63,931 nucleotides of DNA, filler included, from Octopus bimaculoides (GCF_001194135.2; 7 parts of 7 records of this genome joined end to end with filler, not necessarily neighbours in it); one strand, 5' to 3'; shown: positions 8,300 through 61,208, numbered from the whole stretch's first letter. A program made the numbers and translations. The notes: a model not told the origin generated them from the letters alone.

Positions 8300-8642
8300 T
8301 ATGTGAAATATAAGTAAATTATTTACATTATTTACATTTGACGGATATTTCTCCTCATCTTGTTTGTTGTTAACACAACGTTTCGGCTGATATACTCTCC
8401 AGCCTTCATCAGGTGTCCTGGGGAAATTTTGAACCTGGGTTCTCATTCCTAAGGTATTTTTCTGATGTTATTATTATTATTCTTATTGTTCAGGTCATTG
8501 CCTGGAATCGAAATCGGAATCTTGGGTTAGTAGCCCGCGCTCTTAACCACCACGCCATATGCCCGACTGGGACAAATATCTGCCAAAAGTAAATAACGTA
8601 AATAATGTACATAATTCCTCATCTTTCAAATATAGAACTGTA
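8300..8642 (-). mobile_element. tRNA-headed, hammerhead-bearing SINE-like element with inverted tail copy
   Basis: A box 8547-8557, B box 8504-8514 (one mismatch), (AAT)n linker, hammerhead fold 8372-8417; tail 8321-8354 recurs inverted at 8570-8612. Confidence 0.7.
8372..8417 (-). ncRNA. Minimal type-I hammerhead ribozyme motif
   Basis: GACAC-CUGAUGA-A-GGCUG(gagaguauau)CAGCC-GAAA-CGUU-GUGUU: stem I GACAC/GUGUU, 5-bp stem II, palindromic AACGUU stem III. Confidence 0.7.
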
Positions 8643-10747
8643 TGAAATATAAATGTTTGAAATAAATACATGGAAATACATGTTTATTGTTAGGTCCTTC
8701 ATGTCTAAGAATACAGCTTTTACCTTTATCTCTTACTTCTCACCCTCTACCTAATTACTATAACCAACCTAACAACGTCTATAAGACATTTTAAAGCAAT
8801 GAAGAAACCCCAAGAGAAGAAGGCTTTCAATTTGACGGTGATCTGGAAGGGTAACGAGGACCTGACTGATTTAAAGTATAATCTGGAAGACAACGATCTA
8901 GACAATATGTTTATTGAAAGCGAAATAGGGAGTCAGGATAAAGCAATCAGAACAAACACCTTCGTTAAATGCCAGAAACAGTCTATCGGCGTGTTGGAAT
9001 GGAAGCGATTTTAATGAAAAATCGAAGACAAAATTCACAAAGAAAATCAATGTAAACAAATTCAGTATTTTAATACACTTCCTTTATAGTTTAATCTAAT
9101 CACAACAAAGCCTTGTAAATCCCTTAGAAAAAATTGCAACCACATGCCAGGCTTGTACAGAGTTACAGGAGTACTGTGAGTCAGAAAGGAAATTATTCTT
9201 TCCCTTTGTAATAAAATATGTATGCTAATATGGGAAAGGAAACGAATTCAGGCAGTTTGTATTTTCCTTCAAAAGTTAAGCAAGTAATTAAAGCAAAAAA
9301 GTTTTGCAAATAATACATGAAAATGTCGTTGACGTCATAAGAATTTTATAAACGTTCGAGAAAATGCGAAATAATTTTTGTTTTAGAATAGTATATCTCG
9401 ATGCACTCACATATGAAGATATGTAAATATATATTAGATTGAAAAACCCTTTTGGATAATAAAAATCGAAGGCTGGCCGTGGGACACGACCAACATCTCA
9501 TGTAGATATGACAGATGTTCTACCATTCGATTTTTTCTATTTAAAGTGGCTTTTCAACCCAATATTTACATGGTATTATTTATAGCATTAATGTGTGCTT
9601 CGAGATATACTATTCCAAACAAGAATTAATAATTAAGAATATTTTTTCACATAAATTTGAGTCAGTTCGTATTAACAGTCTATTGTATTATTTTGCCAAA
9701 TGCTATTGTTATGTATATATTATATGTATATATTATATTGATATGTATATATCATTTGTAAATGCATATGTGGCATACTCAGGTCCGCGTGACAGGTAAT
9801 TCATGATGAATATGAAACAGCTGAGTGCTTGCATGGCACAAGGTGAATTGTATTACTCGCAATTTTTGCATTCTCATTGATACGGATATGTGTGTATGTA
9901 TGTGTCGGAGGGATGCGTGTGAATGAGTGAATGTGTACATATTAAAGACAGAGATAATTTAATGTAAACGACCATCAAACTGATTCCAGGAGGTCAATTG
10001 TTTCTTTTATAATTGTCATAAAATATCATGTATTTGTCATTTTATTCTGGCAAACAGCCATTTGTATTGCTGTTCGTGTTCCAGCATGGCAGCATCAGGG
10101 GGTACTTGTAGGAGATATTTGTTACAATGATGGTAGTAATCTCAATTAGGAAAACATTTTTTAAAATACCTCTTGATCTTTCTTTTCAAAACTGTAATCA
10201 GATTTTTAAAAAGTGATGCATCGGATACATACAGTTTCATTCGTTATATTACGAGCATTGTAGTGCCTTATAGGATTGTTGTAGAGAAAGAGAAAGAAAA
10301 GTAGATCAACCTAATATATGTATCCAGTGCGTAGTAGTATTGTATTGAAAATATTTACCTAATATTCATATTTCTAGTAGTGCTATTTTCTGTATGTTGT
10401 ATGACTGGACCTACTACCTTAACGACACCTAAAGTGGTGGTGTTAAATCAAGTGGAGCGTTAGCGCCAGCCACCCAACTAAAAACACCCAAGGACCAAGT
10501 GGTGGTGATATGTTACAACGACCATTGAAACTAACATTACACAAAACCCTGTGGTTGTGGTGATGCGTTAAAGCAACCACCCAAACTAACGTGACCATAG
10601 AACCAAATGGTGAAAATTGAGATCTGTGTTGTCTTTACAACTTAAAAACAAAGCAATTGAATATATATATATAGGAATTATTTATTATTGATCTTTTCAA
10701 ACAATATGGATACATTTAAGGTATCTTCTATCCTTTGTCTTGTTGTA

Positions 10748-10877
10748 AGTAGTAGTAGTAGTAGTAGTAGTAGTAGTAGTAGTAGTAGTAGTAGTAGTAG
10801 TAGTAGTAGTAGTGGTGGTGGTGGTGGTGGTAGTAGTAGTAGTAGTAGTAGTAGTAGTAGTAGTAGTAGTAGTAGTA
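10748..10877. repeat. (GTA)n(GTG)n(GTA)n compound microsatellite
   Basis: Direct inspection. Confidence 0.95.
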
Positions 10878-11280
10878 ACCATGATGTTATTGTTCCACTG
10901 AGTTCATAATATTATCAATCCATTCTCTATAGTAAGCAATACTAGTGAAGAGACTGGCCTCTTTGTGGCAGTCTAAGCCATGTGATATCACTCCCGCAAG
11001 AACCATATTGTTTTCATGAGGACAAATCAAAGGACCGCCGGAATCTCCCTAGAAGTAAAGAGAAGACGAAAGAGTTTATGAAACAGGGAAGATAATAAGC
11101 TGCAAAGCGAATCATACATATGTATATATGTGTATATATATANNNNNNNNNNNNNNNNNNNNNNNNNNNNNNNNNNNNNNNNNNNNTTAATTAATTAANN
11201 NNNNNNNNNNNNNNNNNNNNNNNNNNNNNNNNNNNNNNNNNNATATATATATATATATATATATATATATATATATATAT

Positions 11281-11375
11281 AAGTACTAGGGTCTAATCAT
11301 TCGACTAAAAATTCTTCAAGGCAGTAACCCAGCATAGCTGCAGTCTAATGACTGAAATAAGCAAATGATAAAAGG
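11281..11375 (+). mobile_element. SINE family A tail remnant
   Basis: ttcgactaaaaattcttcaaggc...cagcatagctgcagtctaatgactgaaataag. Confidence 0.65.
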
Positions 11376-12144
11376 CAAAAAAAGATATGTGAATGTGTGT
11401 GCATGTACACACATGATAATTCTCTGCACGCTTCCATCTACTCAATTGGCCTCACAAAGAATTGGTCAGCATAGGTTACAGCTGAATGCACATGTCCAAG
11501 AGACCATGCAGTACAACCTAACATGGAACCCCATAGTTGAGATGAGGAGACTTTCATTACCACACTGCTATGTCTAATCTTTGAAATACATAAGTGGCAA
11601 ATGTGATTATATTCATCACTGAAACTGTTGATTGTAATTATTGTATTATTCATGGCCTTACAGTTATATTTTATATAATTAAACATTATTATTGTCATTT
11701 GGTATACATTTCTCATTGTTGCTCATGTTATTTTTCTCAGTTTTTCCTGTAACTTGAGTCAAAAATCTGTATTTGGTTGCATTTGCTGCATACAATAAAC
11801 TGAATTAATATTTTCTGGGAAATTTATTAAACTTGGTTTCTTTTCCTTTTCATACTTAATTAACAGTAATTGGTTCCAGTGAAAGGTTTATAAAAGAATG
11901 GAAATGAAATACTAAAAATAGCTGATTAACAGAAATTAGCATCAAGTTTTCATTTCATAACAGATTTAGTAAGCAACATACATTGAAGATTGCAACATAT
12001 TGCAATTTTTGTAATGTAGGATTTCAATTGAAACCTTATGCAAGGGGGAATGTTTTTGTTTCAGATTATTAAGCTATATATTTCCTTTGTATTCCAGCAA
12101 CAGAAAATATTAATTTGTCTTAGTGGTTTTAGTGATTCTCCTTT

Positions 12145-59210: not shown

Positions 59211-59502
59211 TATGTGTGTATCTATGTATGTATGAATGCATTTATATATTATGTGTGTTTGTATGTACGCAGGACTGTATGTATGCCCGTACGTACGTAC
59301 GTATGTATGTATGTATGAAATGATGGATAGATGGATGGATGGATGTTCTGCCTCAGACAGAACGGACATTAAAATGACCTGATATTTCCATTTCTTTTTC
59401 TACAGATATGCGTGTATGTGTATTTGTGTAAGTTGTGTGTGTGTGTGCGTGTGTGTGTGTGTGTGTGTGTGTGTGTGTTCGTGTGGGAGCGAATATGTTT
59501 GT

Positions 59503-59510
59503 TGACGTCA
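59503..59510. promoter_or_regulatory. Perfect CRE palindrome TGACGTCA
   Basis: Sequence match only; ATTGG (CCAAT box) ~25 bp downstream. Confidence 0.25.
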
Positions 59511-60530
59511 TTCGCGTATATGTCCATTTGCTGATTGGCTGAAAATAACTTTCCTGTGTTGATGAAAATTTTCGGAAAAGAAGAAAAAAAAAAACAAAAT
59601 GTATATATATCTATCTATCAATCTATTTCCACAGAAATGCGCTCACACACACACCCACATACACCACACACAANNNNNNNNNNNNNNNNNNNNNNNNNNN
59701 NNNNNNNNNNNNNNNNNNNNNNNNNNNNNNNNNNNNNNNNNNNNNNNNNNNNNNNNNNNNNNNNNNNNNNNNNNNNNNNNNNNNNNNNNNNNNNNNNNNN
59801 NNNNNNNNNNNNNNNNNNNNNNNNNNNNNNNNNNNNNNNNNNNNNNNNNNNNNNNNNNNNNNNNNNNNNNNNNNNNNNNNNNNNNNNNNNNNNNNNNNNN
59901 NNNNNNNNNNNNNNNNNNNNNNNNNNNNNNNNNNNNNNNNNNNNNNNNNTATATATATATATATATATATATATATTTTCATGGTTATGCACACATATAT
60001 GTACATATATGTACATTTATACATATACATATTTATGTATAAATATATATATATATATAAACATATATACATATTTATAAATGTATATATATATGCACAT
60101 ATATGTACATATGTACATATGCACATATGTATATATAGATACATGTGCATGTGTACACATATGCACACACATATATATATATATATATATATATATATAC
60201 AGAGTAAGATAGCCAGCTAGCTAGCTAGATAGATAAGTACATACATACATATACATACACACACGCATTATGTATATATATATATATGTGTGTGTGTATA
60301 TATATACACACATACACATACACAATATTATATATGCTGACTCAAACATCAGGATAAGTATAATAGTGTAACATCTCCCACACTTTCTCTGACAGTGTGT
60401 GTGTGTGTGTGTGTGTGTGTGTGTGTGTGTGTGTGTGTGTGTGTGTGTGTGTTCGAGTGTGTGTGTGTACGCGTGTGTGTGTGTGTATGTGTGTGTGTGT
60501 TGTTGTTGGAAAAAATGCGAATCTATCTGT

Positions 60531-60538
60531 TGACGTCA
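60531..60538. promoter_or_regulatory. Perfect CRE palindrome TGACGTCA
   Basis: Sequence match only; flank similar to 59503. Confidence 0.25.
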
Positions 60539-61021
60539 TTTTAGAAATGTGTCCGTTTCAAAAATGGCTTAGAATTACTCTCCTCTGTTGATATGACAGG
60601 AAGCAAAAATTCTACACTTTTAATAATTGTAGGGCATCGAAATGAATTGAAACATATTCTAAGCAAAAGGACCTCTGTTCAAAATACACCAGACGACACA
60701 TTTTATGACCACAAGAAGGTTATAAGATTTTACACCAACACTCACCTCTGGGTGCACTGCTTATTATATTAGAAACACCTGTAAGCACATGAAGAGATTG
60801 CATAATGCCTGTTCTTTTGTCATCCATTAATTAATTTTATACTCTGTAGTCATCTAACACTATTCTCTGAAGCACAACTATGTTGAGTTCTAAAAACTGG
60901 ATATTAGTATTGATACGCCTAAACGCAATCATATATATATATATATATATATATATATATATATATATATATATATATATATATACATATATATATATAT
61001 ATAATTTGTAAACATAATTCT

Positions 61022-61208
61022 TGTTTTTATGAGAGCTTGCCAGACAGTATTTTTGATAGGTTTACTGTCCCTGAACAATCTTCAGGCACTGCTCACGTGT
61101 TATGCAATGTAAGCAGTGCCTGAAGATTGTGCCTGACACCAAACATGTAAAAAAAAATATTGTCTGGCATGATCCCGTCACATGAAACTAAAAGTAGCAC
61201 ATAAAAAC
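61022..61208. mobile_element. Palindromic element with a perfect 18-bp inner stem and hammerhead-like remnants on both strands
   Basis: CAATCTTCAGGCACTGCT (61076-61093) / AGCAGTGCCTGAAGATTG (61112-61129); outer gccagacagtatttt / aaaatattgtctggc. Confidence 0.6.

Follow-up and report, generated by a model that had tools for sequence, protein, structure and literature searches.

Short repeats that carry a hammerhead ribozyme raise the question of which machinery copies them and what the ribozyme is for. SINEs are conventionally regarded as LINE parasites. In a stretch of Octopus bimaculoides DNA (63,931 nucleotides including filler, seven parts joined end to end, hereafter the window), a preliminary description had seen a community of ribozyme RNAs mobilised by Penelope-like elements (PLEs), in SINE-headed, foldback, dimeric and circular-type formats. 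Our analysis suggests that the family at 8.4 kb (family A) is, on balance, probably a tRNA-headed SINE that would be transcribed by Pol III and copied by a PLE reverse transcriptase (RT) and GIY-YIG endonuclease rather than by a LINE. The other hammerhead-like repeats look like decayed elements or elements of known kinds.

Hammerhead sites in the window

The seven sites named in the preliminary description were checked with a descriptor scan tolerating an extra base after A9 and a long stem II. The motif was found in the places given, and all four of the palindromes listed are present in the sequence, but the architecture said to be shared by at least four families is intact at only two of the seven sites: the core CUGANGA/GAAA/UH, with stems I and II, is perfect at 8412->8377 (minus strand, family A) and at 54390-54449 (plus strand, family C). 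These two perfect-core sites compare with none in 100 of 100 dinucleotide shuffles, and the four sites with good stems and at most three core mismatches compare with a shuffle mean of 0.08. A helix I of 4-5 bp, an extra base after A9, G10.1-C11.1 and a palindromic stem III occur in families A, B and C. Both A14 and U17 of the cut site fall within the palindrome AACGUU, which leaves 4 nt for stem III itself. Rfam hammerhead models, proposed earlier as a check, gave no match in local scans at 8.4, 54.4 and 35.75 kb (family A, family C and the copy A2) or among the 150 of 272 window matches listed. The families are mutually unrelated in that only weak local scores connect them; the 8.4 and 35.75 kb repeats, however, are related (E 1e-6).

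Composition and insertion of family A

The boundaries of family A were set by read depth and loose ends in public sequencing runs, and its parts and relatives in the window are as follows.

8318..8564, minus strand: main copy of family A (247 nt), with tRNA-like head, (AAT)n linker, body, hammerhead and tail-less 3' end
8547..8557, minus strand: Pol III A box (motif scan; one mismatch in the window copy)
8504..8513, minus strand: Pol III B box, 44 nt after the A box (motif scan; one mismatch in the window copy)
8372..8417, minus strand: minimal type I hammerhead (descriptor scan, shuffles; predicted cut after U17 at 8377)
8570..8643, plus strand: inverted, 5'-truncated second copy of the 3' end (self-alignment, 79%)
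8304..8313 (left) and 8643-8652 (right), no strand: 10-bp direct repeat around the whole unit, a likely target-site duplication
35669..35892, minus strand: copy A2, with a box-A/B-like head, a decayed hammerhead (35791->35757) and a similar 3' tail (nhmmer E 1e-6 to family A; alignments)
35974..36057, minus strand: A3, a decayed 3' piece of the A2 family, upstream in direct orientation as a partial tandem (76% over 88 nt)

The SINE-headed reading was strengthened, because both Pol III boxes match the consensus in the family majority: the majority letter at 8551 returns the A box to consensus (95-99.6% of depth, four runs), as does that at 8513 for the B box (97-99% of depth). The sense strand of the main copy is free of T4 runs, which is compatible with Pol III transcription but not significant. 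The head aligns with the heads of other SINEs in the window, with which family A has no body in common; ARAGORN called no tRNA gene in the head and Rfam gave no match. The hammerhead combines a 5-bp stem I, a perfect core with an extra A after A9, a 5-bp stem II with G10.1-C11.1 and a loopless stem III that is a 4-nt palindrome (self-duplex -1.7 kcal/mol). Between its predicted cut site and the 3' end lie 59 nt. That end is a PLE-type module and has neither poly(A) nor a tandem repeat, as judged from the end sequence itself.

The inverted copy carries a 28-nt tail (8616-8643) that is absent from the main copy and is evidenced by the loose-end consensus at 8317 and the end cluster at 8642/8643. 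A single direct repeat encloses both copies; repeats of this kind arose in 31 of 14,345 random junction pairs and in 2 of 316 AT-rich pairs. Known PLE insertions have a tail at just one end and a second copy that is inverted and 5'-truncated (PMC8557442), and family A shows both hallmarks, the optional 3' tail and the inverted truncated copy. Together with the flanking repeat, the tail with its two 3' ends and the truncated copy support the PLE linkage proposed earlier for the 8.4 kb family. The foldback format corresponds to ordinary inverted PLE insertion, already described in the available portions of PMC4209133 and PMC8557442. No convincing target duplication was found for families B and C, element D or A2. 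A2 is older than family A and related to it; it repeats the layout of head plus ribozyme, and its hammerhead has a changed A14 and broken stems I and II. The direct pair of A2 and A3, like the 40-bp repeat of family C, may reflect the partial tandem (pLTR) arrangement of PLEs, which is absent in the 8.4 kb copy.

A further explanation for family A, an ordinary tRNA SINE mobilised by a LINE, with a once-captured PLE fragment as its body, is in our estimate highly improbable. The SINE-type head, the short target duplication and the LINE remnants present in the window would suit such an origin, but it fits poorly with two fixed 3' ends 28 nt apart, with a tail on one end of the inverted partners and with the lack of poly(A) or a tandem tail.

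Family A in public sequencing runs

Family A is highly abundant in two organisms, with 33,600 contigs in run X1 and 29,305 in run X15 (organism B). Summed depth is ~6e6 on the ribozyme against ~60 on the flank, and depth gives ~3,000 to 100,000 copies, a range that is not a true copy number. Copy ends cluster at 8317/8318 and 8642/8643, 28 nt apart, and ~22-23% are tailed. In DNA contigs of both organisms, opposite-strand joints connect 8565 to 8435 and 8451, which makes the first base of the head the 5' end of the element in those copies. A paralogous contig (X15 record 14) covers 8330-8550, from head to 3' end; none of the eight pieces listed for X1 spans head to ribozyme. Depth over the head is lower than over the 3' part by a factor of 5-8, so many of the copies may be PLE ends that lack the head, or may bear a different 5' part; between the two, depth stays above flank level.

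These data bear on a second explanation, that all of the hammerheads are 5'-truncated ends (pLTR remnants) of autonomous PLEs and that the 8.5 kb head either belongs to an ordinary SINE lying alongside or is a minor chimera, and did not help to found the family. The 5-8 fold climb in depth towards the 3' end and the likeness of the head to those of ordinary window SINEs would agree with it, as would the statement, in the part of PMC4209133 available, that most minimal hammerheads are single motifs, probably derived from truncated PLEs, including opposite-strand pairs 100-700 bp apart. We nevertheless consider it unlikely: inversion joints fall on the first base of the head in other copies, the paralogous contig joins head to 3' end with intervening depth never at flank level, one direct repeat surrounds the whole unit, and A2 has the same layout.

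Among the changes listed for the core and stems of family A, none is a majority change, and no compensatory stem change reaches at least 15%. CpG loss affects G12 (7%) and C15.2 (15%), similar to other CpGs (1.5-15%). The G12 change stands at 25-26% in RNA vs 7% in DNA, which might have been a sign of self-cleavage by intact copies; this was rejected, since all seven CpG sites listed are enriched alike. At the predicted UH site of the 8.4 kb element, where the preliminary description proposed to look for read ends, two of two fragmented cDNA runs, which offer a weak test, show neither a pile-up of beginnings or ends nor a dip in depth. RNA reads over family A resemble host transcripts, in that 87-88% continue into unlike sequence and the strands are equal, and no discrete 5' or 3' RNA ends were found among them. 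With the cut site 59 nt internal and no RNA ends there, cleavage does not appear to define the family A unit.

A search for the family A pattern in viral contigs returned no loci. Six metagenome loci have no more than 19-25 nt in common with the window, showed no PLE protein match and were set aside as chance.

Families B and C and element D

The remaining repeats are listed below.

12333..12756, no strand: family B inverted pair, arms 12333-12506 and 12585-12756 (90% alike; scan, self-alignment)
23344..23400, plus strand: family B2, with the same altered core and a 6-bp stem II (scan; pairs read from sequence)
54080..54572, plus strand: family C, a 453-nt structured unit with a 40-bp exact terminal repeat (54080-54119, 54533-54572)
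54384..54458, plus strand: intact type I hammerhead of family C (core 54390-54449; predicted cut after C17)
53671..54050, plus strand: exact 380-bp duplicate at a 13-N gap (380/380 identical across the gap)
61038..61169, no strand: element D, a decayed inverted pair whose arms both hold the first half-core (scan, self-alignment, shuffles)

Each arm of family B has a hammerhead-shaped fold with an 8-nt palindrome and a non-canonical core. Core positions 3-6 read C-C-A-A instead of C-U-G-A in all three copies (12467->12420, 12624-12671, 23353-23393), altering U4 and G5, and two of the three have a further core change; the canonical core ascribed to this family is therefore missing throughout, and family B is probably catalytically dead while remaining hammerhead-shaped. 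Stem II of B2 differs from that of the 12.6 kb copy by two compensatory pair changes, which may reflect stem covariation; no such change is among those listed for family A. The hammerhead reported at 61.1 kb was not confirmed: the site (61120-61149) has no G12, GAAA or stem I, its loose class arises at 0.26 per shuffled window, and element D is too decayed to call.

Family C is likely retrozyme-like or pLTR-like, with an intact ribozyme motif. Its fold has a z of -4.8, with none of 100 shuffles equally stable, and its hammerhead has an extended stem II and an 8-nt palindrome (self-duplex -11.2 kcal/mol). The dimeric format proposed at 54 kb corresponds to the 380-bp duplicate across the 13-N gap. 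A 94-bp duplicate spans another small gap, making two of the four small gaps in the window that show duplicates, and the longer one is probably an assembly artefact and not a dimer. Tandem units each with an intact hammerhead, the mark of a retrozyme, were not found within the window.

A model along the lines of the preliminary description is that of retrozyme or SM-alpha-like RNAs, in which ribozyme dimers cut tandem transcripts to unit-length, possibly circular RNAs that are then reinserted. This is plausible for family C, which at 453 nt, structured and with a 40-bp terminal repeat, falls inside the published size range. Intact cores with a self-complementary stem III in families A and C are in keeping with the model, and SM-alpha itself joins a Pol III promoter to a hammerhead. 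As a general account we find it quite improbable, because the family A ribozyme would cut 59 nt short of the 3' end and not at a boundary, each insertion in the window has one ribozyme (the sole dimer being the gap duplicate), RNA runs show nothing at the cut site in the weak test above, the family B core is changed in three of three copies, and only one of nine Xenopus dimers has been published as cleaving in vitro. Families B and C and element D are likely further remnants that depended on PLEs.

Penelope-like elements in the window

Of the three decayed PLEs announced in the preliminary description, two were found.

48227..50806, plus strand: broken PLE 1, with RT and C-terminal GIY-YIG (homologues with RVT_1 and GIY-YIG)
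61767..63889, plus strand: broken PLE 2, flanked by (TA)n runs and belonging to another lineage (homologue profiles)

Their close homologues are 30% identical. A third element was detected neither with profiles of up to 159 homologues, which did not extend to remote clades (Naiad, for example), nor in the 123 open fragments, out of 182, that were compared with Pfam. Weak tblastn matches at 35.4-35.5 kb (E 0.015-0.35) disappeared with a broader homologue set. Neither window PLE shows a hammerhead. As to an autonomous partner, the termini of family A were compared with the two window PLEs in place of pLTRs, and their flanks match its 3' module no better than AT-rich chance. One match to the 5' flank of PLE 1 (score 46, 0 of 200 shuffles) was discarded as gappy and AT-rich, unrelated window segments scoring 46-50.

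Proposed mechanism and its implications

Under the PLE-dependent reading of family A, Pol III would read through the T4-free body, ribozyme and tail; a PLE protein would bind the 3' module and nick AT-rich DNA; reverse transcription would begin at either of two internal sites, giving tailed or tail-less ends; and insertions would often form as an inverted pair. Uncleaved RNA would serve as template, in which case the ribozyme would be either a passenger of the recognition module or late-acting (dimeric or protein-assisted). More tentatively, and with rather less confidence, a tRNA-promoter SINE of thousands to tens of thousands of copies may have switched from a LINE to Penelope-like proteins, a pairing that would be undescribed, and the retention by family B of the fold with a dead core may mean that the PLE hammerhead acts mainly as a handle for RT, not as a cutter.

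If true, a PLE-dependent SINE adds a partner class for SINEs, and some of the octopus SINE load could be reclassified: of 900 octopus SINE families active in recent times, 893 are "unclassified" (PMC13282606). The literature searched contained neither a PLE-mobilised tRNA SINE nor octopus hammerheads; Repbase, Dfam, the Zenodo library of PMC13282606, preprint supplements and Ohshima and Okada 1994 lie outside that search and may already contain family A. A 275-nt non-coding RNA, if PLE-mobilised, would define a minimal cis signal for PLE mobilisation, and the contrast between family A, with an intact core, and family B, with a changed one, bears on what PLE hammerheads are for.

Comparison with known systems

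Octopus tRNA SINEs OK, OR1 and OR2 were reportedly described by Ohshima and Okada in 1994. Compared by description alone, they resemble family A in tRNA-type head and high copy number; OR1 and OR2 have been termed CORE SINEs (PMC4824008, PMC4758252).

Mixed families of minimal hammerheads beside PLEs are the published norm for animals and already known. The metazoan PLE hammerheads of Cervera and de la Pena 2014, in the part of PMC4209133 available, have the same short helix I, extra nucleotide after A9, G10.1-C11.1 and palindromic 15.2-16.2, with many unrelated families per genome and opposite-strand pairs. That part describes no Pol III head, whereas family A carries A and B boxes, and the family B core is changed at U4 and G5.

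As far as the accessible portions of PMC6765202 and PMC8490949 describe them, schistosome SM-alpha and Sj-alpha are, like family A, repeats in which a type I hammerhead comes after a Pol III promoter, and their tandem units are ribozyme-cut to monomers. In contrast, copies of family A are dispersed, extend 59-87 nt past the cut site and have the PLE tail and inversion. Animal non-LTR retrozymes are likewise non-autonomous, hammerhead-bearing and proposed PLE derivatives, and family C matches them in size and structure; the excerpts of PMC7229834 and bioRxiv 10.64898/2026.07.22.740005 available define them by tandem ribozyme units and circular RNA and mention no tRNA head.

A close parallel in mechanism to that proposed for family A is the Poseidon PLE PAc of the green anole (Frangieh 2024), for which the available text of PMC11167929 presents the tail as a PLE-specific signature arising from two RT start sites and reports that hammerhead mutants still insert. 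According to the same text, PAc has a hammerhead upstream of the two RT start sites, an optional tail, AT-rich targets and RNA-seq without ends at the cut site, all of which resemble family A. The family A tail, at 28 nt, is slightly under the published 30-40 bp, and PAc is an autonomous element that codes for protein, whereas family A, with its 275 nt, is non-coding and SINE-headed.

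Hammerhead sites of the window

The preliminary description reported several families of minimal type I hammerheads, and the sites that it named rank at the top of our descriptor scan of the window (type I hammerhead, extra base permitted after A9, palindromic stem III). However, two matches alone combine a perfect core with stems I and II of at least 4 bp, one at 8412 to 8377 in the SINE-headed family A and one at 54390-54449 in family C, a class with 0 matches in all 100 shuffles, while the remaining five named sites are all imperfect. Among the latter, the copy at 35.75 kb is decayed and related to that at 8.4 kb, and the 61.1 kb site, which has neither G12 nor stem I, falls in a loose class averaging 0.26 matches per shuffled window and is too decayed for a call. 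The Rfam search proposed as a check yielded no hammerhead among the 150 of 272 window matches listed, nor in local scans of 8.4, 54.4 and 35.75 kb.

Family C, whose 453-nt unit has an exact terminal repeat of 40 bp, an intact ribozyme motif and strong folding (z -4.8), is the best retrozyme candidate among the families of the window, as judged from the window itself. At 54 kb, the apparent dimer is a 380/380 identical duplicate across a 13-N gap, and since a second small gap is flanked by a 94-bp duplicate (6552-6749, one mismatch, 10 N between), which served as a control for assembly duplication, it is probably an assembly artefact.

Family B comprises an inverted pair and a third copy, hence two independent insertions, and all three copies have C-C-A-A at core positions 3-6; the shared changes at positions 4 and 5 lie in 12624-12630, 12467 to 12461 and 23353-23359. 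G5 of the hammerhead core is normally required. The copies at 12.6 and 23.35 kb also differ by two compensatory pairs in stem II; these and the common altered core suggest, from the two insertions, that the hammerhead fold was retained in the absence of catalysis. Possibly the fold was amplified in that state, or family B may be a U4C variant after CpG decay, U4C being a known but weak natural variant (PMC3088659).

A SINE-headed hammerhead family

The SINE-headed format was borne out for family A, which is real and abundant and for which mobilisation by a Penelope-like element (PLE) is likely. It is organised as follows:

8564 to 8318, minus: main copy, in the order tRNA-like head, (AAT)n linker, body, hammerhead, 59 nt to the end
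8557-8547, minus: A box in the tRNA-like head
8513-8504, minus: B box in the tRNA-like head
8570-8643, directly beyond the head: inverted copy of the family A 3' end, extending 28 nt past the main copy's end
8304-8313 and 8643-8652: 10-bp direct repeat flanking main and inverted copies together

Among random junction pairs, 31 of 14,345 have a match comparable to the direct repeat, as do 2 of 316 AT-rich pairs. Core position 17 is U, which makes the weakest allowed hammerhead cut triplet.

The 7.6-11.1 kb stretch is represented in 24 listed public runs, from the source organism (organism A) and its relatives B and C, four of which were aligned to 8200-8800 at 80% likeness; organism A DNA contributed 33,600 aligned contigs and organism B 29,305. 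Depths add up to about 6 million over the ribozyme, 9 million over the 3' part, 1 million over the head and 60 over the flank; depth is not a copy number and, with contig overlap allowed for, brackets abundance at about 3,000 to 100,000 copies. Both Pol III boxes are repaired by majority letters (95-99.6%), and a paralogous head-to-3'-end contig (n = 1) covers 8330-8550. Core and stems show no majority change among the changes listed, beyond which lie 22 less-supported ones; in the core, those listed are loss of CpG at G12 (7%) and at C15.2 (15%), similar to other CpGs (1.5-15%), and thus give no sign of extra post-insertion constraint.

Copy ends cluster at 8317/8318 and 8642/8643, and past 8318 and 8642/8643 the sequence is unrelated and AT-rich (agreement about 0.4). 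At 8317 the consensus of loose ends matches the tail seen on the inverted copy, carried by about 22-23% of 3' ends, and opposite-strand joints link 8565 to 8435 and 8451 (DNA, organisms A and B). Copies retain sequence downstream of the cut site, so the ends of the unit are not determined by cleavage. One organism B contig spans the right junction (8612-8800), so the 8.4 kb insertion is likely older than the split between organisms A and B.

In two RNA runs, with about 6% of each covered, 9,806 of 12,895,792 and 8,038 of 11,974,664 reads aligned, equally on both strands, and 87-88% continued into unlike sequence. Reads ending at the predicted cut site had been put forward as a check; neither run, over the part covered, gave a pile-up of read beginnings or ends, and no discrete family A transcript was seen. 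At 8564, 537 reads of run X23 pass the first base of the head into inverted head-like sequence, that is, head-to-head copies, which may derive from one expressed locus. A second, different 3' continuation at 8325 (8317-8325, both RNA runs) suggests subfamilies with other tails.

PLEs and other repeats

The window is repeat-rich animal DNA in which SINE copies are numerous and microsatellites and N gaps occur. Three decayed PLEs had been described; two broken ones are present, each with RT together with GIY-YIG at its C terminus, and the PLE homologues include oyster-named sequences; a third was not found by profiles of up to 159 homologues or by Pfam on 123 of 182 open fragments. The head of an ordinary SINE family (22936, 28070, 35660 and others) aligns to the heads of family A and its 35.75 kb relative. 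Sequence comparison suggests that heads were exchanged between LINE-type and PLE-type elements.

Two related 80-bp pieces, one upstream of family C (53352-53431) and one between the 61.1 kb element and the second PLE (61401-61480), each end in a short hairpin and then CTAG, which we take to resemble Helitron 3' ends. The minus strand holds a U4 snRNA match in a repeat-rich stretch (18777-18918; 47.1 bits, gathering score 46), probably a pseudogene, a 5.8S rRNA-like fragment (27924-28069; 41.5 bits, gathering score 42), a Mariner-type transposase remnant (13448-14008; Pfam Transposase_1, E 4e-9) and presumably RTE-like LINE 3' ends (7247-7630 and about 1200-2200), with a weak zf-RVT match at 7.3 kb and a similar peptide. 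A long MITE-like inverted repeat at 5582-5756 has no hammerhead match.

Relation to known systems

Apart from its SINE-headed member, the proposed community of ribozyme families beside PLEs is in part overstated and for the most part biology already known. A 2014 study described animal genomes as each holding many heterogeneous families of minimal hammerheads, with opposite-strand pairs (PMC4209133), and retrozymes have been proposed as non-autonomous PLE derivatives (PMC7229834; bioRxiv 10.64898/2026.07.22.740005). Chlamydomonas too has non-autonomous PLEs (PMC8557442). The giant squid has 235 Rfam hammerhead matches (PMC6962438), schistosome SM-alpha joins a Pol III promoter to a hammerhead (PMC6765202, PMC8490949), and the octopus repeats OR1 and OR2 are CORE SINEs (PMC4758252, PMC4824008), passages of PMC10886601 yielding nothing further. 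The available portion of the O. vulgaris annotation (PMC13282606) mentions no ribozyme, with 0 matches in its supplement, and a cephalopod repeat paper gave 0 ribozyme matches. A tRNA-headed element with a PLE tail and inversion was absent from the literature searched, outside which lie the 1994 paper on octopus SINEs, Lunse 2017, Repbase and Dfam.

From its likeness to the anole PLE and its added SINE head we infer, with moderate confidence, that family A would be transcribed by Pol III, that a PLE protein would bind the 3' module of the RNA, and that uncut RNA would serve as template. Against this count the head, whose depth is 5-8 times lower than that of the 3' part and which ARAGORN and Rfam do not recognise as tRNA, the lack of a discrete RNA in the two runs, and the failure to find a partner sharing the 3' module in the flanks of the two window PLEs. 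An optional tail and an inverted 5'-truncated copy are signatures of PLE insertion (PMC8557442; PMC8969392). In the anole PLE, two internal RT start sites generate the tail, insertion persists in hammerhead mutants, the ribozyme cleaves only with protein present, and RNA-seq has no read ends at the cut site (PMC11167929). Family A is like the anole PLE in both genomic and RNA-seq points, and differs from it in the addition of a SINE head.
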